A stretch of DNA of 64,000 bases from Candidatus Bathyarchaeota archaeon (lineage in GTDB: Archaea; Thermoproteota; Bathyarchaeia; Bathyarchaeales; Bathyarchaeaceae): the NCBI GenBank assembly GCA_020348945.1, contig CP070759.1, positions 888,936-952,935 of the forward strand, given 5' to 3'. Positions 1 to 61,493 of this stretch are shown one piece after another. Numbering within the stretch: the stretch's first letter is position 1; every line of letters begins with the position of its first letter. Under the pieces are notes generated by a model that saw only the letters and a program-made list of their open reading frames with translations, was not told the DNA's origin and ran no database searches. The position numbers and the translations under genes are program-made.

Positions 1-318
1 AGCCAAACATCCTGTTGCCTTCATTATCCCAACATCTCGCACCCGCTCAGACATGGACAAATAAACAAGAAAAGACGTTACCAGCGCTCCAACCAAAACA
101 TTGAGGAGGGTGACCATGAAAACAAAACGCGAAAACACGTTGGAGAACCCTGTTGTGAGTTTGCCTCCTGTGACCAGAGCGATTTCAAAGCCAACGTTTT
201 CTCCGAAAAGAGTGAGAAAAACCGCTGTAGCGGTGGAAATGATTAACCCAACTATGGTTAAGCCTGTTTGAAACTTTCTTCGCATCAAGTCCTTTACGGG
301 AAAACCTATTTCACTCAT
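1..318 (-). CDS. ABC transporter permease, FtsX/MacB-type, N-terminal part (gene runs off window start)
   Basis: Own translation of minus strand from ATG 318-316: MSEIGFPVKDLMRRKFQTGLTIVGLIISTATAVFLTLFGENVG...SERVRDVGIMKATGCLA. It has an N-terminal TM helix and an RDxGxxKAxG-type motif typical of FtsX-family permeases. The start overlaps the end of the ATPase gene by 8 nt (operon). Not in the ORF track because truncated. Confidence 0.6.
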   Translation of the reverse strand, partial: MSEIGFPVKDLMRRKFQTGLTIVGLIISTATAVFLTLFGENVGFEIALVTGGKLTTGFSNVFSRFVFMVTLLNVLVGALVTSFLVYLSMSERVRDVGIMKATGCLA

Positions 319-1021
319 CTACGACAACGATCCTGCCGTCTCTCAGATGCAGTGTTCGATTTGCCAACTTCACTATTCTTTCATCGTGCGTAGCAACTAG
401 AATGGTTTTTCCCTTAGTTTTCAATTTCTCCATTATCCCAACAATTTCAAGACCTGTTTCTACGTCCAGATTTCCAGTTGGCTCGTCAATGAGGAGAAGA
501 GGAGGATCATTGGCCAAGGCTCTTGCAAAAGCGATACGCTGCTGTTCACCGCCGCTGAGTTGGGCGGGAAAATGGTCAGTTCGATGTGAGAGACCAACTA
601 ACTTCAGCAGTTTTTCTGATCGTTTCTCGACACGATTCCCTGACCAACCAGCTAATTCCATGGGAAACGCAACGTTTTCCAGAGCTGTAAGCGTGGAAAC
701 AAGGTTGTAGGATTGAAAAACAAATCCCACGTAGGCAGAGCGGAAGGTTGCTAGAAAATCCTCATCATAAGTGCTCAGATCATGACCACAAACAACGATT
801 TCTCCACTGGTTGGTTGATCAAGGCCGCCAATGAGGTTTAGAAGTGTTGTTTTTCCAGCGCCTGAGGGACCATAAATCGAAACGAACTCGCCCTCTACAA
901 CTTCAAGGTTTAAGCCTCTTAAAGCGGATATCGTATGACCAGTGATCGGGTACTCCTTGCACAACGCAGAAGCAAAAACCACTTTTTCCTTGATATCTCC
1001 CATCTGCACGGCCCGCATCAT
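311..1021 (-). CDS. ABC transporter ATP-binding protein (MacB/LolD/FtsE-like)
   Basis: Walker A GPSGAGKTT, ABC signature LSGGEQQR, Walker B LLLIDEPT, H-loop VATHD in the 236-aa ORF. Confidence 0.95.
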   Translation of the reverse strand: MMRAVQMGDIKEKVVFASALCKEYPITGHTISALRGLNLEVVEGEFVSIYGPSGAGKTTLLNLIGGLDQPTSGEIVVCGHDLSTYDEDFLATFRSAYVGFVFQSYNLVSTLTALENVAFPMELAGWSGNRVEKRSEKLLKLVGLSHRTDHFPAQLSGGEQQRIAFARALANDPPLLLIDEPTGNLDVETGLEIVGIMEKLKTKGKTILVATHDERIVKLANRTLHLRDGRIVVVDE

Positions 1022-1253
1022 ATAACTTTTAAAGATATAGAAGATAAACTTAACTAACTTTTTAAAATTCTAACCAAAACGAGGGATTTCTACTTTTAAC
1101 GACTATTCATTTTCAGCGCCCTTCAACATAGAAGTAACCATAGATATACAATGTTTGTTATTCTTTGGCAAAGAAAGTGTTATAAGGTGTTTTCATAAAT
1201 ACCTTGTAATTCGGAGGAGAAAATGCCTTTCTTCGTCATATGAGGTGAGAGAA

Positions 1254-1655
1254 ATGACGGCAATGGAAGAAATAGCTGAATATGCTTTCATGGCTTTCGT
1301 GGCGATAGCTATCATAGCTGGGTTGGCAGTGGGCTTCATAGCTTACGACGCTGGAGACTGGAATGCCACATCAGTGGCAGACGCCAACGCTTATGTTACG
1401 CTGATCATGCTGATCCTGGGTGTCATAGTTGGACTCGTAAGCATAACCACGAAAGAGGTTAGGCCTTTCCTTATAGCTTCGATTGCGTTGATGGTGACAA
1501 GAGTTGGGGTGGATGTGTGGGAACCCCTCTCCACAATCCACGGCCTGCTCTCCTACTGGGCAACGGGAATTCTTAACTACATTGTGGCCTTCGTGGCGCC
1601 AGCAGCAGTCATAATATCAATAAGGTCAGTATGGGTCCTAGCACAGAAAAAATAA
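1254..1655 (+). CDS. small integral membrane protein, function unknown
   Basis: ORF 1155-1655. The internal ATG at 1254 is preceded by GAGGTGA. Three or four hydrophobic helices (IAIIAGLAVGFIAY, LIMLILGVIVGLVSI, IVAFVAPAAVIISI). Confidence 0.5.
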   Translation: MTAMEEIAEYAFMAFVAIAIIAGLAVGFIAYDAGDWNATSVADANAYVTLIMLILGVIVGLVSITTKEVRPFLIASIALMVTRVGVDVWEPLSTIHGLLSYWATGILNYIVAFVAPAAVIISIRSVWVLAQKK

Positions 1656-1835
1656 TCTCCCCTTTTTTTGATCACATATTTCCTAATTACATCGAAAGTC
1701 ATCACAGGGAGCAGAGGAAGTTTTCAAGAAGAAGCATCCAGTATAAGTAGCTGCCTTTTCCGCGGAACCCTTTTCAATCAGAAAGCTTTATCTATTCCAA
1801 AACGGGAAAAGAAGCTTCTGATGAGGGAGTACGAA

Positions 1836-3206
1836 ATGAGTGCAGTTTATGAGGAGGAAAACAAAAAACTTGTCGAGAAAACGAAACGCTCTGAAGAAAT
1901 CTACAAGGAAAGTGTTGAAGTAACCCCTTTTGGTGTTCACAGCAACTATCGAGCTATGGATCCCTATCCCATATACTTCACTAAGGGAAAAGGAAGCAAA
2001 TTATGGGACGCCGACGGTAACGAATACATTGACTTTCACATGGCCTTTGGCGTCTTAGTCTCCGGCCATTCGCACCCAGTGCTGGTGGAAGCAATGAAAG
2101 ACAGAATCGCAAACGGCACCATTTTAGGTTTCGAATTCGAGGATTCTTACAAGTTAGCAAAGATTGTGTGCGAACGTTTCGGAGTTGACATGGTAAAGTT
2201 TTCCACCACTGGAGGAGAATCTACAAATTACGCGGTTAGATTTGCAAGAGCCTACACTGAACGAAAAAAAATATTAAAATTTGAGGGATGCTATCACGGT
2301 TTCCCAGACAGTTTTCTAGTAAACGTCAAACCTACAGTGGCTAAGGCAGGGCATCCTAGATTTCCGAATCAGGTTCCCGCGTCTAAGGGAATCTTAGAAG
2401 AAGCGGTCAAACAGACCTTGATAGCGCCTTTCAACGATTTGGAAGCCGTTGAAACGATAATGAAGAAACATGGAAACGAAGTGGCGGCCATCATCTTGGA
2501 ACCCATACCAATGAACATGGGCTACATTCTTCCGAGACCAGGATTCCTAGAAGGACTGAGGAAAATAGCTGACGAATACAATTCAGTTCTCATCTTTGAC
2601 GAAGTTAAGACCAGTGGAAAATTTTACAGAGGAGCCGCTGGATACTTCAAAGTCAAGCCGGACCTTGTAACCATGGCTAAAGCCGTTGCTGGAGGCTACC
2701 CATTGTCGCTTGTAGCTGGGAAAAAAGACATAATGAACGCTGTCGTACCAGGTGCTGTTTCTCATGCAGGCACTTTCAACTCCAACTCGCTCGTCATAAC
2801 CGCAGGGATAGTGACTCTTTCAAAAATACTGACGGAAAAGGCCATGAACGAAGCCACGAAACTTTCCAGGATGCTGGCCAAAGGTTATGAAGACATTATA
2901 AATGACGCTAAAATCCACGCGCTAGTTAAATGGGCTGGAACAAGCGGTACAGTTCACTTCACTAAGGCTAAGAAAATTGAGAACTGGAGAGATTTCCTAA
3001 CTACTGACGTTGCTAGGTGGTTCCTTTACACGGTGATCATGCTGAACAGAGGAATCGTGCCCAGCGCTTTGGGTCCAGATGAACAGTGGACGATTTCTGT
3101 GCAACATACAAAGGAAGACATAGCGAAACACTTGGAGATCTTTAAGGAAATCGCGGGACACGTAAGGAAACTCGACATTGAGATGCCAATAGTTGAAGCA
3201 ATTTAA
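1836..3206 (+). CDS. class-III PLP-dependent aminotransferase (glutamate-1-semialdehyde aminomutase-like)
   Basis: The 512-aa ORF has HemL/GABA-AT-like blocks: WDADGNEYIDFHMAFGVLVSGHSHP, GGESTNYAVRFAR, LIFDEVKTSGK, SHAGTFNSN. Likely start is ATG 1836 (GAGGGA upstream) or 1821; the long N-terminal extension of the ORF is probably untranslated. Confidence 0.85.
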   Translation: MSAVYEEENKKLVEKTKRSEEIYKESVEVTPFGVHSNYRAMDPYPIYFTKGKGSKLWDADGNEYIDFHMAFGVLVSGHSHPVLVEAMKDRIANGTILGFEFEDSYKLAKIVCERFGVDMVKFSTTGGESTNYAVRFARAYTERKKILKFEGCYHGFPDSFLVNVKPTVAKAGHPRFPNQVPASKGILEEAVKQTLIAPFNDLEAVETIMKKHGNEVAAIILEPIPMNMGYILPRPGFLEGLRKIADEYNSVLIFDEVKTSGKFYRGAAGYFKVKPDLVTMAKAVAGGYPLSLVAGKKDIMNAVVPGAVSHAGTFNSNSLVITAGIVTLSKILTEKAMNEATKLSRMLAKGYEDIINDAKIHALVKWAGTSGTVHFTKAKKIENWRDFLTTDVARWFLYTVIMLNRGIVPSALGPDEQWTISVQHTKEDIAKHLEIFKEIAGHVRKLDIEMPIVEAI

Positions 3207-3307
3207 GTTCGGCAGCGACGTCTTGAGGATGACCCCCTCAAACAACTCTTTCTTTTTTTAAAAAAAAGAACTATGTGTCACTAATAATTTGGTAATGTCT
3301 TTCATAA

Positions 3308-4456
3308 TTAATCGATGTAACTTTCCATCTTTTCGTGTATCTGTATGCCTCTCTTTGACAGCTCCTTGAAGAAATCCAAATGGTCGAGACCTGCTTCTGG
3401 AGACAGAACTCCCTTGTTTTCTGTTTTTCCTTTTGCAATCAGCTGGGCTCCAATCGAAAGAGGTATTCCAACATTTTTGCCGTATGCGGATTTTCCATCC
3501 CACTCGCTCATCGATGGATGGTTGTTTTTAAGAGTGATCTTCGCGGGTTTACCATTTTTCTGTCCCACTACTGTAACAATTAAGCCGTAGGCCCAAACGG
3601 GGTTTTTCTTGGCTTCTGGAGTTTGGTAGAGAAAATTGTACATAAAGTCTACTGGTTTCACTTTCTTTCCGTTTACTTCAATTGGCTGTGTTTGGTAAAA
3701 GTTGTATTTCACCATCAATTTGACCAGTTCCATAGTTGCTGGAGGGAAGCATCCTTTTACTTCCACTTTCTGTAGGTCTGGAAACATTTTAGGTAAGGTT
3801 TGTGTTTCTGGATGAGGAATGTAGACAACTTCTTGTCTTCCAATCTGCTCGTGGAATTCTACTATTTGTGCTCCTTCGAAGGGATTAACCTTTATGAATT
3901 CGCCGTTTTTGTAGTAGACTCTTTCTTCTATAGCTGGGTCGAATTCCCAAAAGGTTGTGCGTAATAGACCAGGCGCAATAGCTGTGCTTCGGAAAGCAGC
4001 AAATGCGATCTGCACCTCTTCTGCACGATCAAGTTTACTTATTCCATACTTCGCCATTAGATTAGTTGTGCCAGGTGTAGCTCCGCAGCCAGCTATATAC
4101 GTGATTCCTATTTTTTTCGCCTCTTCGTCGAGGGCAAATTGATTCTCTTCAGCTGAAAGGTCTATGCCATTTGTTCCAGCTTTTATGCAAGCCTTTGTCA
4201 CGTTAAGGTCATACTTGAAAGGTAATGCACAGGCAACGACATCGAAGCCTTTCATTGCGCTAGCAAGTTTATTAACGTTGCTTGCGTCAACTCTAACAAC
4301 TGAAAGTCTCTCGTCTCCTAGTTTAGAGACGACCTCTTTAGCTCTATCAACAGCTATATCTCCTATAACGATCTCTGAAAAATCACTTTTGCTCACTAGG
4401 TCTTTCGTGGTTTCCAAACCCATCGCGCCAACTCCACCTAGAACCAGTATTCGCAT
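3308..4456 (-). CDS. saccharopine dehydrogenase-family NAD(P)-binding oxidoreductase
   Basis: N-terminal Rossmann motif MRILVLGGVGAMG. Length (382 aa) and C-terminal domain layout resemble saccharopine/carboxynorspermidine dehydrogenase family proteins. Confidence 0.8.
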   Translation of the reverse strand: MRILVLGGVGAMGLETTKDLVSKSDFSEIVIGDIAVDRAKEVVSKLGDERLSVVRVDASNVNKLASAMKGFDVVACALPFKYDLNVTKACIKAGTNGIDLSAEENQFALDEEAKKIGITYIAGCGATPGTTNLMAKYGISKLDRAEEVQIAFAAFRSTAIAPGLLRTTFWEFDPAIEERVYYKNGEFIKVNPFEGAQIVEFHEQIGRQEVVYIPHPETQTLPKMFPDLQKVEVKGCFPPATMELVKLMVKYNFYQTQPIEVNGKKVKPVDFMYNFLYQTPEAKKNPVWAYGLIVTVVGQKNGKPAKITLKNNHPSMSEWDGKSAYGKNVGIPLSIGAQLIAKGKTENKGVLSPEAGLDHLDFFKELSKRGIQIHEKMESYID

Positions 4457-4604: not shown

Positions 4605-4909
4605 GGAGACTTCGTTGATGCTTTTGTATCCGAAAACGCTTCTCCTGAACCGCAAAGAACATCGGTGATACATAGTGACTAGGTAATTCTGGTCCCACCA
4701 ACATCACCTAATATTAACATCGACATGTTGAGAACAATCAGAATTAGCAAGCTTTGCCTACTTAATTTACTTACAAAGCACATGCCTCCATCAAAAAATC
4801 GCGAGACAAACTTCTTTTTAACACAATAAAACGCTGACATCACCAACAAAACCCCTTCTCCGCTCCTCGCTTCAGATTTAGCGGATACAAAAGCATCAAC
4901 GAAGTCTCC
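4605..4909. repeat. perfect 28-bp inverted repeat pair (4605-4632 / 4882-4909) bracketing a 249-bp AT-rich segment
   Basis: GGAGACTTCGTTGATGCTTTTGTATCCG at 4605-4632; 4882-4909 is its exact reverse complement (checked base by base). Confidence 0.9.
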
Positions 4910-20416: not shown

Positions 20417-20569
20417 CTTTGTTACTTACCAGCTAAAGAACTGTTCGAAATCAATCACAGATAAACCTTTCGTGCTCACAAATTATAGCACGCGCATGAG
20501 CGCGCAACAAGTTCTTTACTCGGAAGCCTTAAAACAGGATCATGCGAGCATTAAACATTGGTGTATTGA

Positions 20570-20947
20570 ATGAAAGTTGTTAAGTTAACTGACATCAAGG
20601 AGATGAAGGGAGAAGGATTCACCTTATGGCAACTGATAAATCCGAACACAGTAGGGTCAAAGAACGCTATGTTATTTGTCGTCACCATAGAGCCTGGAGG
20701 AAAAATACCAGTTCATAAACATGGTTCAGCGGATGTGACAATTCACATCCTTGAGGGACAAGGAGCCTTCTTAGTTGGTGAGGAAAGACAGATCCTTGAA
20801 TCTGAAACTGCGCTCTATGTCCCTGTCGATGTAGGAATTGGATTAGAAAATATCGGGAGAGAAACTCTACGATTTGTTGTGGCAATAGCGCCACCCATAG
20901 GCGTAGAAACTTGCCCCGTATGCGGCATCAAAATCAAAAACCTTTAA
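20570..20947 (+). CDS. cupin-domain protein
   Basis: Cupin motifs GGKIPVHKHGSADVTIHILEG and YVPVDVGIGLEN. 125 aa. Confidence 0.8.
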   Translation: MKVVKLTDIKEMKGEGFTLWQLINPNTVGSKNAMLFVVTIEPGGKIPVHKHGSADVTIHILEGQGAFLVGEERQILESETALYVPVDVGIGLENIGRETLRFVVAIAPPIGVETCPVCGIKIKNL

Positions 20948-21426
20948 TGTATGCGCCCAAAATTTTCATCTCGCGCGCAAAAATCGCTTATAAAAGCTTT
21001 TAAGAATTGCGCGCGTGACTCGATTAGTTTTAACGTTTGGTTATCAAGAGTGGCAACTCGAACTATGTCGGTCAGCGTAACTAAACCTACCAATCTGTTT
21101 CCATCTACTATAGGCAGTTTTTTCACTTTTTTTTCAAGAAGAAGCTTCGAGGCTTCAGCGAGTTGCATGTCTGGCTTTCCAACAATGACCTGTTTTGTCA
21201 TTATGTCTGAAACCCTTGTTTCTTTTGGGTCTCTGCATTTTCCCACAATTCTTTCAAGCACGTCTCTTTCAGTCAGAATCCCAACAACCCGATCCTGATC
21301 AACGACCACCAAACAACCTATTCGATTCTTATTCATAATCTCTACAGCATCGTTAGCTGAAACATCTTTCTCCATAGTGATGACATTTTTAACCATTATT
21401 TTCTCGATTATCATGGTCATTCTCAC
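20944..21426 (-). CDS. CBS-domain pair protein
   Basis: Two CBS repeats (VITMEKDVSANDAVEIMNKNRIGCLVVVD; VIVGKPDMQLAEASKLLLEKKVKKLPIVD). The last ~30 codons read through a GC-rich palindromic element (see repeat 20972-21015). Confidence 0.85.
   Translation of the reverse strand: MRMTMIIEKIMVKNVITMEKDVSANDAVEIMNKNRIGCLVVVDQDRVVGILTERDVLERIVGKCRDPKETRVSDIMTKQVIVGKPDMQLAEASKLLLEKKVKKLPIVDGNRLVGLVTLTDIVRVATLDNQTLKLIESRAQFLKAFISDFCARDENFGRIH
20972..21015. repeat. compound palindrome: CGCGCGCAA ... TTGCGCGCG arms enclosing TAAAAGCTTTTA
   Basis: Arms 20972-20980 and 21007-21015 are exact reverse complements. The inner 12-bp perfect palindrome is at 20991-21002. Lies between the convergent cupin and CBS genes. 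Confidence 0.7.
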
Positions 21427-26697: not shown

Positions 26698-26739
26698 TTA
26701 AAGTATTTGTACAATCATCGAATTGTACAAATACTTTAA
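26698..26739. promoter_or_regulatory. 18-bp perfect inverted repeat with 6-nt spacer, candidate operator/hairpin
   Basis: TTAAAGTATTTGTACAAT (26698-26715) catcga ATTGTACAAATACTTTAA (26722-26739). Begins 10 nt upstream of the ykgJ-like start, in the divergent region shared with a small wHTH gene. Confidence 0.6.
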
Positions 26740-31178: not shown

Positions 31179-31944
31179 AGGGCATCCACTGCTCCACTGT
31201 AAATACAGGAGTTTCAAAAATGAAATGCACTTGCCCACTGTCTGTTAGTTTCGAGGCATCTGCGGGTTGCATATTAATTTGGTCATTATACATGCTTTGC
31301 GACGGTGCATCTAGACTAGTTTCTCCAAAGGTTACCAGCTCATCCACATCATTGTACATTTCCAGTTTCATCGTTCCCGTTATGTCAAAATAAGAATTAT
31401 TTTCGAAGCTTAGCGGTATTCCTACTCTAACATGAGTGCTGTTAAAGGGAAGAACAGAAATTTCTCCGACAGAGACATTATTGAAGGGCGCTCCCCAAGG
31501 CACTGTCATGTTCATAGACAACTGAACTGGAACAAAACGTGCAAAATTCAACGCTACAAATGTCTCAAACACGAAAAAGCTGTCTTCAAAGATAAGTCCG
31601 ATACGCTCCATGACATCGCTTAGATCAATGGAAATGTTGTGCGCTGCCTCAACACTGTTACCCGTTGAGACCAAGGGAACAAAGGTTTCGGATACACTTA
31701 GCGCTGTTTCGTTGGAATCCGTTATACGTGTCGTAATGTTCAACTCGGATAAATCATAGTAGCCACTGTTGTTGATGAAGAAAGGCAACGAAAGCACCAC
31801 GCCCGTAGTTGATGGAAGAAATTGGACTTCTCCAAAGCCAAAGCCTAAGTTCATAACCGAGTAAAGAGCCGTAACCGAAAAAGCAATCAAGAATATCCAA
31901 ATTATGATTGTTGCTATGCCCAGCGCCCTTATGGCTGGCTTCAT
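31171..31944 (-). CDS. membrane-anchored extracellular beta-rich protein (LEA_2/WHy-like repeats suspected)
   Basis: N-terminal TM (LGIATIIIWIFLIAFSV) followed by two similar beta-strand-rich halves with N-x-S/T sites. ATGA overlap with the upstream gene. Confidence 0.55.
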   Translation of the reverse strand: MKPAIRALGIATIIIWIFLIAFSVTALYSVMNLGFGFGEVQFLPSTTGVVLSLPFFINNSGYYDLSELNITTRITDSNETALSVSETFVPLVSTGNSVEAAHNISIDLSDVMERIGLIFEDSFFVFETFVALNFARFVPVQLSMNMTVPWGAPFNNVSVGEISVLPFNSTHVRVGIPLSFENNSYFDITGTMKLEMYNDVDELVTFGETSLDAPSQSMYNDQINMQPADASKLTDSGQVHFIFETPVFTVEQWMPYG

Positions 31945-32291
31945 TTGCTCTTCTTTCCTTTAGTCTTCGCTGAAGAATGTCCAGAATTTTTGGAACTCTG
32001 CTTCACGGGCTCGATTTTTGGAACAGTTTCTGGTTTTGGTGAAGTGAGAAGTTGCACTCCCCTTATCGTCACTATGGAGCCGATCCATCCCATTATGCCA
32101 AGATACATTACTCGAATGCTTGCCTCAATCAGCGGACCTAAAGCTTCACCGAAAAGATTCTCAATACCAGAGGTAGAGACTATGCTTAAATCTTTTTGAA
32201 GGAAACTGTACGCGTTAAAGAACGCGAACACTAACAGAATCACGCCTATAAGCAGAAGAGTGAAATTTGGAATTTCAGTCTTACTGATCAT
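31941..32291 (-). CDS. small membrane protein with Lys-rich tail
   Basis: Two TM helices and the C-terminal SSKNSGHSSAKTKGKKSK. First gene of an overlapping 3-4 gene minus-strand operon. Confidence 0.5.
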   Translation of the reverse strand: MISKTEIPNFTLLLIGVILLVFAFFNAYSFLQKDLSIVSTSGIENLFGEALGPLIEASIRVMYLGIMGWIGSIVTIRGVQLLTSPKPETVPKIEPVKQSSKNSGHSSAKTKGKKSK

Positions 32292-32399: not shown

Positions 32400-32412
32400 A
32401 TGCGCGCGCAAA
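32400..32412. repeat. left arm of perfect 13-bp inverted repeat ATGCGCGCGCAAA
   Basis: 32400-32412 ATGCGCGCGCAAA is the exact reverse complement of 33618-33630. Confidence 0.9.
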
Positions 32413-32459
32413 GTTTTCACTTATGAAATCCAATTCAAGTTTACACATATGAGATAAGC

Positions 32460-33617
32460 GTGTATAATCATTTAAGCCAGCCGTCTATAGATAGGGCTGA
32501 GAAAATGAAAACTGATATTACCAGCTCATTTGTGAGGGTGTGCCGGAAGCTCGATGAGTTAAGGTTCAGGTCTACTGTTAACTGGGGCGTTCTTGGAAAG
32601 AATATATTTAGAAACTCGCAACTCAAGGCTTCAACTCGTCTTTTCCTCTTCTGGCTTTGCAGCATTATAGACCAGTTCTACGGATATGTTACCCTATGGA
32701 CCAAGGGAGAGAAAGCAATGCTGAGATTGATAGAAGACAATCCACGATCATTTTCTGAAGTGAAAGATAAGATAGAAAACCTACGAAGGGATCGTAAGGG
32801 AAACATATTGGGGGACATCTTTTTCAACGGTGGAAAAATTGGCTTGGTCAGAGATGACTACAAGCGAATTAACAACTCCTTTGAGTTTTTAACACGATAC
32901 AATAAGCCTGAGCCAAACTTGGGTATCAAGTTTGCTAAGGTATTAGGTGAGCTCATAGCAGGATGCCATGGAAAAAACGGTGTCCTAAAAATGGCATATT
33001 TCCTTGACGGATGGATGTTCAGCAACATCTTAATCTCTCTGGATCCAACACTAACCGAACTTCACAGATTTCGAGAGAAACCACGGAAAAGACTATGGAT
33101 GTTCATAATGTTTTTGAGAAGAGATCCATCTGTACTAAATCTGTTCCAGAAAGCGCTGATCGAAGTCCATGGGAACAATAACGGCAACGCTCTGTTTAGT
33201 ATATGGAATGATAAAAGCAGGTTTGATCCTAAGGAAGTCGAGCTACCAGGAGACATGTGGAATCAGCGATTATTCAAAGCGTTGCTCAGCGAACTCCCAA
33301 AATTCTTGAAACAAAAACCAAAGCAAACAGCAAGAGAACTGGCATTGAGATATGATCTTTCACCATCTATCTTCGATGTAACATTTGAACTCGGAGCTAA
33401 TAAATGCAGGTCCATGGAATGCAGTCTATGTCCATTCGGCGATAACCAGCTATGCCACAAAGGAAAAGAGAAGTTCTGTTCAATCACAGATTGGCTCTTT
33501 CCATACTATGAAAAGGGGCATCATGGGATAATGTGCAATCCGGAAGATTGTCCAATTGGTAAAGACTTGGGCAAGAGTCTGTGTACTCGCAAAATTGATC
33601 GAGAAATAACACATTAA
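32460..33617 (+). CDS. hypothetical protein with C-terminal cysteine cluster (possible distant DUF2400/TIGR02757-like)
   Basis: 385-aa ORF (GTG 32460; ATG 32505 alternative). KRLWMFIMFLRRD, VELPGDMWNQRL and the C-terminal CRSMECSLCPFGDNQLC...C...C...C resemble, from memory, the TIGR02757 pattern (LFLRWMVR, PLDTHV, C-x-C-x2-C). Low certainty. Confidence 0.6.
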   Translation: MYNHLSQPSIDRAEKMKTDITSSFVRVCRKLDELRFRSTVNWGVLGKNIFRNSQLKASTRLFLFWLCSIIDQFYGYVTLWTKGEKAMLRLIEDNPRSFSEVKDKIENLRRDRKGNILGDIFFNGGKIGLVRDDYKRINNSFEFLTRYNKPEPNLGIKFAKVLGELIAGCHGKNGVLKMAYFLDGWMFSNILISLDPTLTELHRFREKPRKRLWMFIMFLRRDPSVLNLFQKALIEVHGNNNGNALFSIWNDKSRFDPKEVELPGDMWNQRLFKALLSELPKFLKQKPKQTARELALRYDLSPSIFDVTFELGANKCRSMECSLCPFGDNQLCHKGKEKFCSITDWLFPYYEKGHHGIMCNPEDCPIGKDLGKSLCTRKIDREITH

Positions 33618-33630
33618 TTTGCGCGCGCAT
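33618..33630. repeat. right arm of perfect 13-bp inverted repeat TTTGCGCGCGCAT
   Basis: Starts 1 nt after the stop codon of the 32460-33617 gene. Exact reverse complement of 32400-32412. Confidence 0.9.
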
Positions 33631-33851
33631 TCTCGGTGCCGACTCAGCGACAGGATGATAGGTGACTAACAATGCAACTCCTTAACCCCTCATTTTTTTC
33701 TGTAAATGCGACGGCTGAACCTCCTAATTCGTAAGGCTTATGTTAACGAACTTCTTAAAACCTATCTGGAGCGTTGGTTAGATAAGGTAAACTCTATTAT
33801 TTGAATCCAAAGACTAGTCATGCACACTAAAATCATGATGGAGAGGGTTGA

Positions 33852-35545: not shown

Positions 35546-35884
35546 ATGAGTCGTGTTCCCCTCGTTGACCTTGCAATCAAGTATTTCAGACAGCGAGGCT
35601 ACAAGATAGAGAAGAACACTGTTTTAGAAGGATTTTCCGGGCTCCCACACAGCTTTGACCTCGTTATCCGCAAGGGCAAAGAACGGCAATTAGTCTGGAT
35701 CAGAGACTGGAGACGAACGGTTGGCATCAACATGGTGATAAAAATGGACAAGGCTTCGGCAGATGTTGGTTTTGTAAACCCAGTGATGGTTTCTGGGAAG
35801 TTTAGCGGACACGCCAAGGCATATGCCAACCGCCGAGGCGTCACGTTATTAATGAAACGTCAAATCCTGCGGGGACTAGGATAG
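35546..35884 (+). CDS. hypothetical protein, possible restriction-endonuclease-like fold
   Basis: 112-aa ORF: LAIKYFRQRGYKIEKNTVLEGFSGLPHSFDLVIRKGKERQLVWIRDW. Resembles small archaeal Mrr-cat-like proteins, but the catalytic motif is not clear. Confidence 0.5.
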   Translation: MSRVPLVDLAIKYFRQRGYKIEKNTVLEGFSGLPHSFDLVIRKGKERQLVWIRDWRRTVGINMVIKMDKASADVGFVNPVMVSGKFSGHAKAYANRRGVTLLMKRQILRGLG

Positions 35885-38645: not shown

Positions 38646-38745
38646 TGGTGCTCCGGCCGGGATTTGAACCCGGGTCGGCGGCTTTCTCTCCAGTGTTGTA
38701 GAGGACGAGAGGCCGCTATACTTGACCGGACTATACTACCGGAGC
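38646..38745 (-). tRNA. tRNA-Glu(CUC) with a 22-nt canonical (37/38) intron; CCA encoded
   Basis: Minus-strand read: GCUCCGG UA GUAU AGUCCGGUCAA GUAU A GCGGC CUCUCG[UCCUCUACAACACUGGAGAGAA]A GCCGC CGAC CCGGG UUCAAAU CCCGG CCGGAGC A CCA. The GCUCCGG acceptor is typical of archaeal tRNA-Glu. Confidence 0.85.
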
Positions 38746-39889: not shown

Positions 39890-39989
39890 GCTCACAAGCT
39901 AACATCTATTCTTAGTACACAATCTTTTTCATATGCACATTTTTTTTGTGTGCCTTAAATTATTAATACAACTTAAAATGGAATGATAC

Positions 39990-40410: not shown

Positions 40411-40743
40411 TTATTTCGCCTCGCGCTTGTCTCTCGACATTGGAAAGACATCTAACATGGCTCTTACCTCACAGCTATCGCTAATCTCCACAAAAGACCT
40501 ACGCGTGTGGTCCTCAAGGACGTCTTTGAGCTGAGCGAAGGCCTCTAGGAAGCGGTGTCCCTTCTCGGTTGTTACATATGTGTCTGAATTGTGCGCAAGC
40601 AGATTACGTGATGTAAGAAGCGTCAAGTAATTTTTAAGTTGTAAATGACTCAAGTTGTTCATGTACATAATGCGCGTCTTTCGTTTGGAGTCCATGCAGA
40701 ACATCAAAATCTGAGCCGTAATCTCGATCCGTTGTCTCTTCAT
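40411..40743 (-). CDS. winged-helix DNA-binding protein
   Basis: ILMFCMDSKRKTRIMYMNNLSHLQLKNYLTLLTSRNLLAHNSDTYVTTEKGHRFLEAF, the typical archaeal wHTH (HTH_45-like) layout. Confidence 0.65.
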   Translation of the reverse strand: MKRQRIEITAQILMFCMDSKRKTRIMYMNNLSHLQLKNYLTLLTSRNLLAHNSDTYVTTEKGHRFLEAFAQLKDVLEDHTRRSFVEISDSCEVRAMLDVFPMSRDKREAK

Positions 40744-40988
40744 CCTAAATCCACCTCTCCGCGCGTTTTCAAAAGGTGTTCATCTGGGTTTTCAATTAGT
40801 GTTCTAATTTGTAATTGTGGACTTTTAACCTTATGTGACTGTGGCACAACAGTCACATACGCTTATTAGCTTATACTTCCTTATCCGTATTTTGCACGCA
40901 ACTAAACATCTAGATGCGTGGGTAGAGAATAGATGCATGGCATGCAAGCCTTTACTAGACGATTAGCAATAATGAAGTTGGAGATAAG

Positions 40989-41249
40989 TTGTCCACGACT
41001 TTTTCTTCTATTCTTACGAAATTTGTCTTATTATTTGAGCCAATATCACCTCGTTTTGTCTCCTTCCTAGTGGGAAGAAAGCTAAAAGAATGGAAGAACA
41101 AGGGGTTGATTGATGGTTATAAAACCAAAACGAAAAGGATTGGGAAGTTTCATTATAAAATTTACCTCGATCTAGATTTAACATCGAAACAAGCAAGTAG
41201 AATACTAAGAGACACGTTGATTCAGGCATTAAAACGTATCAGGAGGTGA
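40989..41249 (+). CDS. hypothetical small basic protein
   Basis: 86-aa ORF with a TTG start, followed by a possible 47-aa ORF (41254-41397, MVEEKKGQAKITIEVEINEALMEIV...) behind AGGAGGTGA. No family recognised. Confidence 0.3.
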   Translation: MSTTFSSILTKFVLLFEPISPRFVSFLVGRKLKEWKNKGLIDGYKTKTKRIGKFHYKIYLDLDLTSKQASRILRDTLIQALKRIRR

Positions 41250-41728
41250 TGTGATGGTTGAAGAGAAGAAGGGACAAGCGAAAATCACTATTGAAGTAGA
41301 GATAAACGAGGCCTTAATGGAAATAGTCAAAGAAGCCATGAAGAATATGCCTCAGATGATGAAGATGCCAGGGATGCCCGGGCAAAAGAAAGAGTAAGAG
41401 TGAATAATGCGGGCCCGAACAGAACCAAATGTTTCCAAGTAACCTGTCCTCGATGCATGCATACATGCCTAATGGACCTCTAGGGACCAAAACAACTGAT
41501 TCCCTAATGCGCGCACGGGAAGTCTTAAATGTTCAATCACAGATTTACATTTTGTTTCAACTATTCTAATCCCACCAAGCGCCTACCACTGCCAATGTTT
41601 GAACGATGGCAAACATGTAGGTAACCTCTTAAGTAAATACTACTTCATTTTTCAATTAGAATTTTTGGGTTTAGCATGCATTCCTACTGGATTTGCTTTA
41701 GACATCTTCTCACCTTCTACTTTGCTAT

Positions 41729-42247
41729 TTTCATTTCAAGTTGCATTAATAATTTAAGGAAAAGAATTACAGGGATATGTAAGGCGATGTTAAGTTGAAA
41801 GAATACGTATGTGTGCAAGTTGGTCATCATAAGAATGTCGGTAAAACAATTGAGGAACACCAAAGGAATGGCTGGCGTCTACACACCTATCAAGCCCAAG
41901 GATCTCCAACCCTTGTCAATCATTACTTACTGTTTGAGAGAGGCGAATGAGTAAGACCGACGCTTCTCAATTTCCCCTCTTTTTTCTATACACGCATTCG
42001 GTTGCATTAATACATATTTATCTTTATTTACTTACGACTTTCTCCCACCCCTATAGAGAAGAAAAAAGAGTAGTAAGCTCTTATGATGAGAATAACACTA
42101 TTTTTGATGGTTATCTATCGGTTTAACCTTACAAATCCTCTCTCTCCATAAAAGGCGAAAAAATCAAAACCTAAACTATTGAAGCCAAGTCATAGCGAAA
42201 CCAAAAGAAGGTTTCTCCTTAAATCTTTAATGCAACTTCAAATGAAA
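41729..42247. repeat. IR-bounded 519-bp element (31-bp imperfect terminal inverted repeats, 28/31 match)
   Basis: TTTCATTTCAAGTTGCATTAATAATTTAAGG (41729-41759) versus the reverse complement of 42217-42247, TTTCATTTGAAGTTGCATTAAAGATTTAAGG. An extra GTTGCATTAATA copy lies near 42003. Confidence 0.75.
41795..41950 (+). CDS. DUF4177-like small protein (51 aa, TTG start)
   Basis: Own translation (L/M)KEYVCVQVGHHKNVGKTIEEHQRNGWRLHTYQAQGSPTLVNHYLLFERGE*. The xEYK-V ... GWRL ... LLFER pattern resembles DUF4177. Confidence 0.4.
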   Translation: MKEYVCVQVGHHKNVGKTIEEHQRNGWRLHTYQAQGSPTLVNHYLLFERGE

Positions 42248-42335
42248 TAATTAACAGATGAAAAGAGAGAGTTGATGATTGAGTATGCCTTGTTTTCTGA
42301 CTTTTGTTTTTGGAACTGTTTGTCTCTAGTTTATG

Positions 42336-42716
42336 CTATTCGATTCCCCATCTTTTGGTGACCTTGACTAGTATGAAGATTACGAAGGTTACGATGGCGA
42401 AGGTTATTAGATGAACTAGGAAGTCTCCTATCCCGAATATTTGCTGAAAGATCTCTATCTGATAGGTTGCTAGATCACCAAGACCTGGTAATGCCAAGCC
42501 AATAACTGGCATCACTAAATCCTTAACTAATGCTTGAACTAGGTTGCCAAGATAAAGAGCCATGATGAAAGCAACAGCGAGACCCATGACCTTATACTTT
42601 GAAAGGAAGTCCAAGAATTCATTCCAGAGTCCTTTTGGTGGCGATGGAGGAGGTTTCGTTTCAAGCAACTCTCTGATTCGCTTTAGCTCTTCCAACATTT
42701 CATCTTCCTTAGACAT
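42336..42716 (-). CDS. mscL: large-conductance mechanosensitive channel MscL-like
   Basis: WNEFLDFLSKYKVMGLAVAFIMALYLGNLVQALVKDLVMPVIG aligns with the E. coli MscL N-terminal helix/TM1 ([41 protein letters not shown]). A second TM and a basic tail follow. Confidence 0.7.
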   Translation of the reverse strand: MSKEDEMLEELKRIRELLETKPPPSPPKGLWNEFLDFLSKYKVMGLAVAFIMALYLGNLVQALVKDLVMPVIGLALPGLGDLATYQIEIFQQIFGIGDFLVHLITFAIVTFVIFILVKVTKRWGIE

Positions 42717-58891: not shown

Positions 58892-59152
58892 TTAATATTT
58901 TAGACCTGAAATTGATGAAGCTTATCTACAGCGGCATACTATAAGAGTCACAAGCGAAAACCGTCTTTTAAGTCGATTCTAACGGAATACTGGATACCTT
59001 ACTCTTTACGAATGTGTAACAATTTATCAATGGTATTCCGAAAACGTTCGGTTTAACGAAGGATGACTCTAGCTTTTACTTGAGTTATCACTGATTTGTA
59101 GGATATACACGCGCTTTTCTTTTTCTCCAGTTGGCATGCGCGCGCGAGTCAT

Positions 59153-59694: not shown

Positions 59695-60420
59695 TTGGTT
59701 ATAGCTATTGTATTGCTTTCTATTGGATTCAACACGCGCGCGATTATTAAGAAGATATTCAACAATACAGGCGGGCTAAATTTTCTAGAGTTTACTTATA
59801 AGGTGAATAAGATACTTACAATCTCAATCTTTACCTTTGTTTTGACAACGTTCTTGAGAATTATGTTCAGCAGCATAGATGTTATTAATTGGTTATGGAG
59901 TTTGACTTTGTCTTTTGTTTTGTTTTCTATTCCTTTTTTTATATTCGCAAATGCGTTAACCGATTTGGGTGAATTTAGAATAGTGTTTAAGGAGCTTATT
60001 CTCCAAATTTCTGACACACAAAAGCGTGCGCAGCATTTTAACCAACGACAAAAATGGATGAAGAAGTTTTTTGAAAGACTTGAAGAACAACTTAGAATAG
60101 CGAGAATTAAGGTTAAAAGTGATAAGTTAGTTTACATTTGCAACTTGAAATTAATGAATTCTGAAGAGATTACGGAAAATCTGAAAAATCTTGGAAATTG
60201 GATACTTGGAGAAAAAACAGAAAATGTGCTTTCATCATTCAAAAAGATATTTCCAGATGAAGAAATCAAGCCAATTGAAAAAACTTCACAACGACTATTA
60301 GATAAATTCGTAGGTATTCCCAAGGATGTTAGAAAATACATTTTTTTAGCTATAATTCTAGTGTTTGTCGCTGTCTTTAAACCTGAATGGATTGAAGGAC
60401 TCGTTAGTAAACTTTTTTAG
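59695..60420 (+). CDS. membrane protein with cytoplasmic coiled-coil C-terminal domain, function unknown
   Basis: Three TM helices (VIAIVLLSIGF, ILTISIFTFVLTTFL, LWSLTLSFVLFSIPFFIFA), then a charged helical region and a final hydrophobic helix. AT-rich codon usage. TTG start; the frame is open upstream to 59518 with no ATG/GTG. Confidence 0.6.
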   Translation: MVIAIVLLSIGFNTRAIIKKIFNNTGGLNFLEFTYKVNKILTISIFTFVLTTFLRIMFSSIDVINWLWSLTLSFVLFSIPFFIFANALTDLGEFRIVFKELILQISDTQKRAQHFNQRQKWMKKFFERLEEQLRIARIKVKSDKLVYICNLKLMNSEEITENLKNLGNWILGEKTENVLSSFKKIFPDEEIKPIEKTSQRLLDKFVGIPKDVRKYIFLAIILVFVAVFKPEWIEGLVSKLF

Positions 60421-60581
60421 ATTATTCCGATGCATGCATAACGTTTTCGCGCGCGTACCCCAAAATGTGGACCAAATACGACATATAAAAGAGAGGAACT
60501 AGAAACCCTCTAAGCCTTCTCTTTGTAGATTCTACCGTCTTCCGATAGGTTTTTGAATGAATTGCGGATAACAACTATCTG

Positions 60582-61493
60582 TTGAAGATGCTTTACTACC
60601 ACATTTATACTAAATATACGGCGAAAAATGGAAAAAAGAAAAAATCTTTCATGTTTAATTACTCGAAAAAAGAAATGGAAAGACTGTTTGCCGTTCCCTA
60701 CATGAAAAATAAAGCCGTTCCAATTTTTGGGGGATTTGTTCCTGCATCAGCCATAGATACTATTCGCATTTTCAAATCCAAAAAGCCATTCGAAGAAATA
60801 ATTCTTCCAGATGGAATATCCTCTGTTGAAAATCCACAAGAGCGTGTGTCTTACATTGTGGATTGCATTAGTTTAAGGAAAGTGCAAGGTGTTGATGACT
60901 CCACACTTACTTTTATTACTTCACCACCACAGAAAGAAGTAAAACCGATTAAATCACTCACTAAACCACTTGGCAAAAAGGAAAAGGTATTCATAGTTCA
61001 CGGTAGAGACGAAACCCAAGCATCGAGGCTTCAAAAATACTTGACAAAAACGTTGAAAATTGACGCTACAATGTTTGAAAACTTCAAGGAAAAAAGCGGT
61101 AGCAACACAATAATTGAGCAACTTGAATATATTAAGGACAACGTGGGTTATGCCTTTGTTATTGTTACGCCAGACGATTTAGGTTGCCTACGTGAAAATA
61201 TTGACAAATGCAGAACCACCATGCTGACAGGCAAGAAAAATATTACTGTAAAGAGCGTTTGTGACATTCTTGATAATCTTAATGCGAGGGCACATCAAAA
61301 CGTTGTTTTTGAACACGGACTTTTCACAGGTGCTTTAGAAAGAGACAGAGTATGTTGCCTTCTTCAAAAAGACACTAAAGAGAAGCCAAGCGACATTGAC
61401 GGAATCCTTTATGTGGGTTTCAAAAAATCTGTGAAAGAAACATTCAGTGAAATAACTGAAAAACTGAAAAAGGCTGGGCTAGTCAAAACTTAA
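60582..61493 (+). CDS. protein with C-terminal TIR-like nucleotide-binding domain (CAP12/PycTIR-type, COG4271-like) and an unknown ~130-aa N-terminal domain
   Basis: KVFIVHGRDETQASRLQKYL...TIIEQLEYIKDNVGYAFVIVTPDDLG...ARAHQNVVFEHGLFTGALERDRVCCLLQKDTKEKPSDIDGILYV follows the family pattern VFIVHG-x-D ... TIIEKFE ... FAVVLLTPDD ... RARQNVIFELGYF-x-GKLGR-x-RV ... PSDL-x-G as I remember it. Confidence 0.75.
   Translation: MKMLYYHIYTKYTAKNGKKKKSFMFNYSKKEMERLFAVPYMKNKAVPIFGGFVPASAIDTIRIFKSKKPFEEIILPDGISSVENPQERVSYIVDCISLRKVQGVDDSTLTFITSPPQKEVKPIKSLTKPLGKKEKVFIVHGRDETQASRLQKYLTKTLKIDATMFENFKEKSGSNTIIEQLEYIKDNVGYAFVIVTPDDLGCLRENIDKCRTTMLTGKKNITVKSVCDILDNLNARAHQNVVFEHGLFTGALERDRVCCLLQKDTKEKPSDIDGILYVGFKKSVKETFSEITEKLKKAGLVKT

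Follow-up and report, generated by a model that had tools for sequence, protein, structure and literature searches.

Does a perfect inverted repeat that closes exactly around a single gene mark the ends of a unit that moves, or can such a bracket arise from the meeting of unrelated copies of something more widespread? The locus that raises this question lies in a 64,000-nt stretch of Candidatus Bathyarchaeota DNA (hereafter, the window), in which a plus-strand gene for a cysteine-rich (Cys-rich) protein of 370 aa (32505-33617) stands between two 13-bp arms, ATGCGCGCGCAAA (32400-32412) and TTTGCGCGCGCAT (33618-33630). A first-pass annotation, made from the letters of the window, had proposed either a single-gene cassette delimited by recombination or hairpin sites, or a gene flanked by matched promoter-proximal and terminator hairpin halves. 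Here we argue that the bracket probably reflects a dispersed intergenic element with a (GC)4 core, two copies of which came to lie in adjacent spacers by chance. The enclosed gene belongs to a conserved archaeal family of its own, which appears to be a remote sister of DUF2400.

Geometry of the Bracket

The two arms are exact reverse complements over 13 bp, as first annotated, with one open reading frame (ORF) between them, and the match ends at 13 bp both outward (GATAGGC versus ACCGAGA) and inward (GTTTTCAC versus TTAATGTG). The right arm, on the plus strand, begins at the base adjoining the TAA stop (33615-33617) and lies 221 nt ahead of the next ORF (33852, phosphoglucomutase-like). The left arm, which reads TTTGCGCGCGCAT on the minus strand, occupies the central part of an intergenic region between divergent genes; the minus-strand gene 31941-32291 starts 108 nt away. 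From its end to the first possible start of the Cys-rich gene, GTG 32460, there are 47 nt, and to ATG 32505 there are 92 nt. The first-pass spacing is therefore correct at the stop and for the GTG given in the ORF list, but the probable start is the ATG, which is favoured by the N-termini of 28 homologues and by an identical 370-aa protein at NCBI. The outer flanks of the arms (GATAGGC, TCTCGGT) share no direct repeat and show no target-site duplication, there is no step in G+C content across the 32400-33630 segment, and an Rfam search of 31.5-34.5 kb returned nothing except two sub-threshold snoRNA-like matches.

The position of the arms relative to likely transcription signals bears on the proposal of paired hairpin halves. 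An A+T-rich candidate TATA-box region, TTTACA-N17-TATAAT (32440-32468, plus strand), lies 37 nt 5' of the ATG, although the scan that found it used a bacterial consensus on an archaeal host and is indicative only. Downstream, a run of seven T residues (33693-33699, plus strand), 76 nt past the stop, is a putative archaeal oligo-T terminator, and the right arm would lie in the 3' untranslated region if transcription ends there. Because the left arm is 5' of the TATA-like region, the two arms are unlikely to occur on one transcript, and the idea that they are matching halves of one hairpin loses its footing. A hairpin formed by each arm alone was also considered and rejected: a single arm or (GC)4 copy folds with -0.7 to about -1 kcal/mol, weaker than shuffled sequences.

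The Arms Are Copies of a Recurrent Intergenic Motif

The window holds nine separate perfect inverted repeats of 13 bp or more with their arms no further than 2 kb apart. When it is simulated under a first-order Markov model, 2.4 ± 1.5 such repeats are expected, and one or more turned up in 95 of 100 runs. The length of the 13-bp repeat is not beyond chance, and it is the sequence of the arms that is non-random. Allowing up to two mismatches, the 13-mer occurs six times in the window where 1.0 is expected, a count reached by none of 100 shuffles. Likewise, TTGCGCGC occurs five times (1.04 expected; five reached in 0/100 shuffles), and the palindrome ATGCGCGCGCAT, with up to two mismatches, four times (0.93 expected), each time between genes. 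GCGCGCGC itself is found three times in 64 kb, and two of these occurrences are the arms. Since the (GC)4/GCGCGCGC core is its own reverse complement, every pair of copies makes an inverted repeat of 8 bp or more, and the remaining five matching bases of the arms are common flanks of the motif; a self-complementary core with consensus flanks on both copies yields the perfect 13-bp repeat.

Further copies lie far from the Cys-rich gene. The third (GC)4 copy, ggCATGCGCGCGCGag (59134-59146, minus strand), shares GGCATGCGCGCGC with the left arm and is intergenic and unrelated to the Cys-rich gene, and a related site, ATGAGCGCGCAAC (20496-20508), occupies the spacer from which a Band-7 gene and a cupin gene diverge. 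A doublet, GCGCGCAA-N26-TTGCGCGC (20973-21014), stands between the convergent cupin and CBS genes and, as single-stranded DNA, is predicted to fold strongly, as a hairpin of -16.2 kcal/mol (z = -4.1). The cupin gene (20570-20947) is thus bracketed as well, by GCGCGCAA (20500) and TTGCGCGC (21007). Finally, a CGCGCGCG run (60448-60455) lies 28 nt past the stop of ORF 59695-60420 and 127 nt before a gene with a TIR domain. As a separate observation, the doublet holds an inner palindrome, AAAAGCTTTT.

Runs of (GC)3 or longer are biased towards intergenic DNA, both in the window (8/15 against about 20% intergenic DNA; binomial p = 0.004) and in L022, a contig carrying a homologue of 72% identity (5/8; binomial p = 0.011). 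Among the window runs counted as coding, two (20972, 21009) fall in the last codons of a convergent gene, and that at 59735 is barely inside a TTG-started ORF. No such run occurs in the loci of eight relatives, about 123 kb in total. Two of these loci have 44-45% G+C, and the absence of runs from relatives of equal G+C makes the motif lineage-specific rather than an effect of composition.

The consensus GCGCGCGCAT was present in all eight non-redundant copies of the window lineage (window 33621 on the plus strand, 32402 and 59138 on the minus strand; L001 7152; L007; L039 3830; L008 404; L024 1247), often after a T- or CT-rich flank. Several copies lie 0-28 nt past stop codons (window 33621 and 60448; L001 7152 and 8398; L024 576; L031 1515), others in the middle of divergent promoter regions, and their neighbouring genes have no function in common (Band-7, cupin, CBS, DUF2330, TIR-domain protein, phosphoglucomutase). 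No publication on archaeal intergenic GCGCGCGC motifs came up in a literature search.

One pair of near-identical contigs captures a difference in the element itself. Over 266 nt upstream of the homologous gene, L007 and L039 are set apart by one single-nucleotide polymorphism and by a clean 15-nt indel, CATGCGCGCGCGCGC, at L007 2279-2293 (L039 about 1258), approximately 105 nt 5' of the gene, where it makes a perfect 18-bp palindrome, CATG(CG)5CATG, in L007. The element is therefore gained or lost independently of the gene.

Relatives of the Locus Do Not Share the Bracket

Homologues of the Cys-rich protein at 43-78% identity were compared on about 30 contigs, and none of these contigs has the element on both sides of the gene. 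It is found downstream only in L001/L022 and L024, 23-24 nt past the stop, and upstream only in L007, its near-identical sister L039 lacking it there. No element accompanies the homologues of L041, L038, L040 and L004 (78-73% identity), nor those of distant loci including L008 and L010, except on the L031/L032 contig. At the same time, the neighbouring genes vary between loci: the upstream neighbours in the window, L001 and L004 are mutually unrelated, and an exact-protein look-up of the 116-aa upstream neighbour in the window found no other contig. The gene, or the island that holds it, moves in evolution, and the 13-mer is not the marker of the moving unit. Two findings had been named in advance as telling against a cassette, a common intergenic motif and an invariant, syntenic locus; the first is what we see, whereas the second is not, as the neighbourhoods vary. 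In a further comparison, L003 (about 4230) and L001 (about 8360), which carry the same homologue (P0007) without any difference, have nothing in common beyond a breakpoint that falls within the 3' end of the EVE gene downstream, which places the locus in a recombining, variable region.

The distantly related contig L031, which equals L032 from another sample over their common stretch, carries eight (GC)3-4 runs in 4.1 kb (1-4165), five of which belong to an oriented 16-18-nt family, hCTCTTWA-GCGCGCGC-TA, spaced by 380, 1025, 373 and 371 nt. Here a different gene stands between the arms of a perfect inverted repeat of 14 bp, TTTTAAGCGCGCGC/GCGCGCGCTTAAAA, a bracket of the same type that arises from an element of the same type. 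We also note that the L031 repeats separate short gene segments, one of them a truncated, frameshifted, Cys-less homologue (1180-1514), and that the contig looks like a small-cassette array or a heavily rearranged region.

Weighing the Explanations

We propose that two independent, oppositely oriented copies of a short lineage-specific element, one in each spacer beside the gene, would suffice to produce the bracket. This element would have a (GC)4-6 core, would read (T-rich)GCGCGCGCAT in the window lineage and would measure roughly 11-18 nt. It would be gained and lost as a unit in intergenic DNA, in the fashion of repetitive extragenic palindromes (REPs), and would define no gene boundary. 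A cassette in which the 13-mers are recombination or hairpin sites delimiting a mobile unit would agree with the non-syntenic neighbourhoods of the gene, with the (GC)4 element close past the stop in the window, L001, L024 and L031 and with the array of short segments that the oriented repeat seems to split in L031. We nevertheless find it highly improbable, given that the element flanks the gene twice in no relative and is missing from several of the closest (78-73% identity), that it behaves as an independent 15-nt indel 5' of an otherwise identical locus, that the same motif stands beside unrelated genes, also singly, and that the arms stop at 13 bp with neither extension, target-site duplication nor G+C discontinuity. 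The opposite extreme, that two unrelated short G+C-rich strings coincide here and belong to no element family, is quite improbable: inverted repeats of this length are indeed expected by chance, but the motif is over-represented relative to shuffles and intergenically biased in two genomes, and the CAT flank in 8/8 copies, the restriction to some lineages at equal G+C and the indel polymorphism all speak for a family.

Functional readings of the two arms fare little differently. Paired operators, bound by a palindrome-recognising regulator that would control the gene and its divergent neighbour, perhaps through DNA looping, are improbable; although the motif is over-represented and ATGCGCGCGCAT-like sites are found at the centre of divergent promoter regions (32402, 20500, 36565; L008 404, L039 3830), many copies directly follow stop codons, and the site is dispensable between strains and missing from most orthologous loci. 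Nor are the flanked genes related in function, and the wider notion of a regulon was rejected on that ground. The least probable reading is a 3'-end or termination signal, a (GC)n hairpin or Z-DNA-prone tract followed by T residues, with the upstream copy serving the neighbouring unit. It would draw on the copies 0-28 nt past stop codons, on the T-runs after several copies (L024 1247, ...CATTTTT; L008 404, ...CATTTTG) and on the strong folding of the doublet 20973-21014 between convergent genes. Single (GC)4 copies fold no better than shuffles, however, neither arm here is followed by a T-run, and no transcription unit ends in the divergent promoter regions that contain the left arm and other copies.

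Several points weigh against a chance meeting of dispersed copies. In four lineages (window, L001/L022, L024, L007) the gene has a (GC)4 or longer element no more than about 120 nt away, and another such element stands right past the stop of the truncated distant homologue in L031. The element is thus near the gene in five lineages, above its window-wide density, and may be linked to the locus. In addition, the intergenic statistics rest on crude ORF maps, and the relatives compared share the gene and not the flanks of the window, none being syntenic there. The copy number of the element is known from 64 kb of sequence. A bolder reading, which we consider unlikely, is that the (GC)4-6 motifs are undescribed very short, oriented, lineage-specific repeats of Bathyarchaeia-like archaea that insert or expand de novo, the 15-nt indel of L007 being the instance, and mark gene ends in variable regions, as in the L031 array, where each spacer has one copy. 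Such repeats may be recombination junctions or Z-DNA- or cruciform-prone signals, and may even be tied to the DUF2400-like iron-sulphur (Fe-S) enzyme family. On balance, two copies of a dispersed element in adjacent spacers probably explain the bracket, and the single-gene cassette, as first annotated, does not hold up against the one-sided or absent elements of relatives, the independent indel and the bare 13-bp arms.

A Conserved Cys-Rich Archaeal Family

The product of 32505-33617 is identical to NCBI JSV12_05110, a hypothetical protein encoded on a 1.72-Mb contig of a Candidatus Bathyarchaeota metagenome-assembled genome, and represents an unannotated archaeal family. The single ORF had been described as encoding 385 aa with a C-terminal cluster of eight cysteines; the probable length is 370 aa, and the cluster (33405-33584) is confirmed as C301-x4-C306-x2-C309-x7-C317-x7-C325-x18-C344-x4-C349-x10-C360, all eight cysteines being invariant in 29 sequences. 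The cysteine tail is missing from some relatives. Upstream of it, a core region (33087-33254) contains the motifs KRLWMFIMFLRRD and ELPGDMWN with invariant K195, R196, W198 and D250, the last of which is a candidate catalytic aspartate. A broad family profile (A2) adds W65 and D291 to these four invariant residues and displays, in order, WLD..RW, HWLCYI.DRQ, KRLW..LRDY, LELPGD.WN and YPEQFDVTFDF, followed by the cysteine module.

Relatives comprise 32 close and 203 remote sequences, the exhaustive profile search yielding 203 clusters at 50% identity; a second, word-indexed search with A2 as the query brought in no further members. The protein matches nothing in Pfam or NCBIfam at E ≤ 10, nor in PADLOC. 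The family is therefore conserved and archaeal, has about 200 clusters at 50% identity and lacks a Pfam or NCBIfam model. An AlphaFold2 model of the protein (predicted local distance difference test, pLDDT, 87.7; predicted template modelling score 0.90) is mostly helical. Profile searches of the PDB with A2 and with a narrow family profile (A1) gave only noise.

The cysteine pattern contains C-P dipeptides, which are typical of ferredoxin-like ligands, and the eight cysteines are predicted to fit one or two [4Fe-4S] clusters. The protein is most likely an Fe-S enzyme of helix-hairpin-helix (HhH)-GPD-like fold that acts on DNA, in base excision or in the sensing of lesions or modified bases. 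The analysis directly shows the repeat with its recurrence and intergenic bias, the indel, the conservation of the family and the relationships of profile and fold, whereas metal binding, catalysis and substrate, like any role of the (GC)n element, are inferred.

Remote Relationship to DUF2400

The first-pass annotation had noticed a weak likeness to DUF2400/TIGR02757 and had suggested profile and structure comparison. A profile-profile alignment (hhalign) of A2 with an alignment of 32 DUF2400/TIGR02757 proteins (A3) covered 239 columns with the motifs in the same order (E 6.6e-5, probability 63.8%), which gives the likeness moderate support. Three of the four DUF2400 motifs (GFKHRF, KRLxLFLRWMVR, PLDTH, DPxKYDF) have counterparts in the Cys-rich protein (KRLWMFIMFLRRD, LPGDMWN, SPSIFDVTF), while H124/R125 of HRF are not conserved. 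In two loci, L033 and L036, a homologue with an N-terminal DUF7669 is adjacent to a bona fide DUF2400 gene (E = 1e-31 and 4e-28). The model of this DUF2400 neighbour (pLDDT 93) matches MUTYH/MutY (E 0.011-0.04, probability 0.96-1.0), and the DUF2400 profile matches endonuclease III weakly over the Asp and Fe-S-loop region (E 0.65). In HhH-GPD proteins, the [4Fe-4S] cluster loop is Cys-X6-Cys-X2-Cys-X5-Cys; the spacing of the first four cysteines here, C-x4-C-x2-C-x7-C, is similar, not identical, and four more invariant cysteines follow.

Other comparisons count against this link. The alignment of A1 with DUF2400 is not significant (E 0.45), and Foldseek found no significant match for the model of the Cys-rich protein; the link depends on one profile-profile comparison of moderate probability. 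Alignments of the profiles with single DUF2400 sequences were also not significant. Of 40 family members, one touched DUF2400 (E = 0.12), and the window protein does not reach the curated cut-offs of PF09674 (no match at E ≤ 10) or TIGR02757. Among the non-significant Foldseek matches, the best viral one is an endonuclease III (probability 0.44, template modelling score 0.42 by target), and MutY ranks fourth in the PDB. Together, the profile alignment, the adjacent DUF2400 genes and the MutY/MUTYH match suggest a sister family of DUF2400 in a HhH-GPD-like fold, related by remote homology. The early likeness survives in this sense, while membership fails the Pfam and NCBIfam thresholds and the structure comparison gave no significant match. 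A literature search found no paper on the function of DUF2400/TIGR02757.

In their own right, the archaeal DUF2400 proteins of L033 (4584-5933) and L036 (4635-5888) carry at their C-terminus a nuclease domain of the NucS/EndoMS-like PD-(D/E)XK type (Foldseek E 6.6e-4). Nearby in L033 there are also PIN/RHH genes and a gene whose product faintly matches Piwi.

Genomic Company of the Family

Pfam identifies a YaaA/DUF6884 gene directly downstream of the Cys-rich gene at four different loci (L004, L037, L039, L040), and in L011, L019, L020 and L021 a gene of this type directly downstream was recognised by eye from the CxxxK-type motif at its N-terminus. One paper proposes that DUF6884 binds lesions in DNA and flips a base (PMC11701544). 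The Cys-rich enzyme would normally act with a DNA-binding partner of the YaaA/DUF6884 type encoded directly downstream. A tblastn search of the whole window found no homologue of YaaA/DUF6884, EVE, DUF2400 or Dam.

The company kept elsewhere is varied. An EVE-domain protein is encoded downstream of the homologue in L001. The L040 locus has a Dam-type methyltransferase and a HEPN protein, L004 an SNF2 helicase and a DUF7664 protein, and L033 and L036 have DUF7662 and PIN/MazE genes. In L037 (1-7612), one strand carries, in direct succession, a NurA-HerA-Mre11-Rad50 operon and the genes for an Mrr/Hjc-like nuclease, the homologue of the Cys-rich protein and DUF6884. The window itself encodes a 112-aa Mrr_cat/PD-(D/E)XK nuclease (35546-35884), 2 kb downstream of the Cys-rich gene and similar to the one directly upstream in L037.

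Other Features of the Window

Three further inverted repeats were seen. A perfect 28-bp repeat, GGAGACTTCGTTGATGCTTTTGTATCCG (4605-4632 and 4882-4909), encloses about 250 nt of non-coding DNA between two ORFs and resembles a miniature inverted-repeat transposable element (MITE) or a long hairpin. Two minus-strand ORFs meet at 26698-26739, where a perfect stem of 18 bp closes on a loop of 6 nt (TTAAAGTATTTGTACAAT...). A 15-bp perfect A+T-rich repeat (39953-39967 and 41745-41759), its arms 1.8 kb apart, encloses a winged helix-turn-helix gene (40411-40743), next to a 1.6-kb stretch (40743-42336) without an ORF of at least 100 aa, into which the repeat extends. The gene at 60582-61493 encodes a CAP12/Pycsar-type TIR effector domain (Pfam E 3.5e-29), matches the PADLOC candidate PDC-S35 (E 2.9e-41) and is likely a defence gene. 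ARAGORN reports a 100-nt tRNA-like gene with a four-base anticodon, tctc (38646-38745), adjoining tRNA-Ala(CGC); this tRNA-like gene may be an intron-containing archaeal tRNA.

Comparison with Known Systems

Dispersed copies of a self-complementary motif can, as a side effect, put a perfect palindromic bracket round a gene, and recognising this removes a tempting false lead. What the locus offers instead is a family whose neighbours come from DNA repair and modification sensing (EVE, Mrr-like nuclease, Dam methylase, NurA-HerA-Mre11-Rad50), which leads to the testable hypothesis of a base-excision or lesion-sensing module, and which also informs on DUF2400. The presence/absence polymorphism of the (GC)n element is a small, real observation on the genome dynamics of uncultured archaea.

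DUF2400 and the Cys-rich family occur in the same archaeal gene neighbourhoods and resemble each other in KRLW.F.MFLRRD and KRLNLFLRWMVR, in LELPGD.WN and L.VPLDTH, and in SP..FDVTF and DP.KYDF.L, the motif of the Cys-rich family being given first in each pair. The first four cysteines, C-x4-C-x2-C-x7-C, align with the DUF2400 cysteine loop, C-x8-C-x2-C-x5-C. The Cys-rich protein differs in having about 30 more residues between the KRLW and LPGD motifs and four extra invariant cysteines, and it is without the NucS/EndoMS-like PD-(D/E)XK domain of the archaeal DUF2400 neighbours. With endonuclease III and MutY it may share an all-helical two-lobed core, a conserved Asp after a Pro/Gly-containing turn and a C-terminal Cys-Xn-Cys-X2-Cys-Xm-Cys loop. 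It has eight cysteines rather than four, however, no HhH motif was identified in it, and no direct sequence or structure match to these enzymes was significant.

Among mobile systems, the locus recalls an integron in its single, promoter-less-looking ORF with a palindromic site right past the stop, and in the array-like L031 with its oriented repeat. The attC sites of integrons are imperfect inverted repeats of 57-141 bp with R and L boxes, one attC per cassette. Here, in contrast, a flanking pair of 13-bp alternating GC sites is found, with no extended palindrome, and the site is absent or differently placed at orthologous gene ends. An integron cassette was rejected for the lack of an attC-like extended palindrome at the 3' end and of conservation of the site with the gene. 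No recombinase was seen among the ORFs scanned (28.9-38.2 kb and a few others), in which no search was aimed at IntI or attI. A transposable element with terminal inverted repeats, or a MITE, was rejected as well, there being no target-site duplication, no transposase in the enclosed gene and no extension of the 13-bp arms.

The closest likeness of the element is to bacterial REPs and their inverted doublets (REPINs). No RAYT (IS200/IS605-like) transposase appeared among the same ORFs, in a scan that included no search aimed at RAYT. Like REPs, the element is a short, G+C-rich palindrome that is intergenic, multi-copy and strain-variable, and that sometimes forms hairpin-forming inverted doublets (20973-21014). 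It is distinguished from them by its length of approximately 11-18 nt, compared with 20-40 nt in bacterial REPs and REPINs, by its core of purely alternating GC and by its archaeal host.

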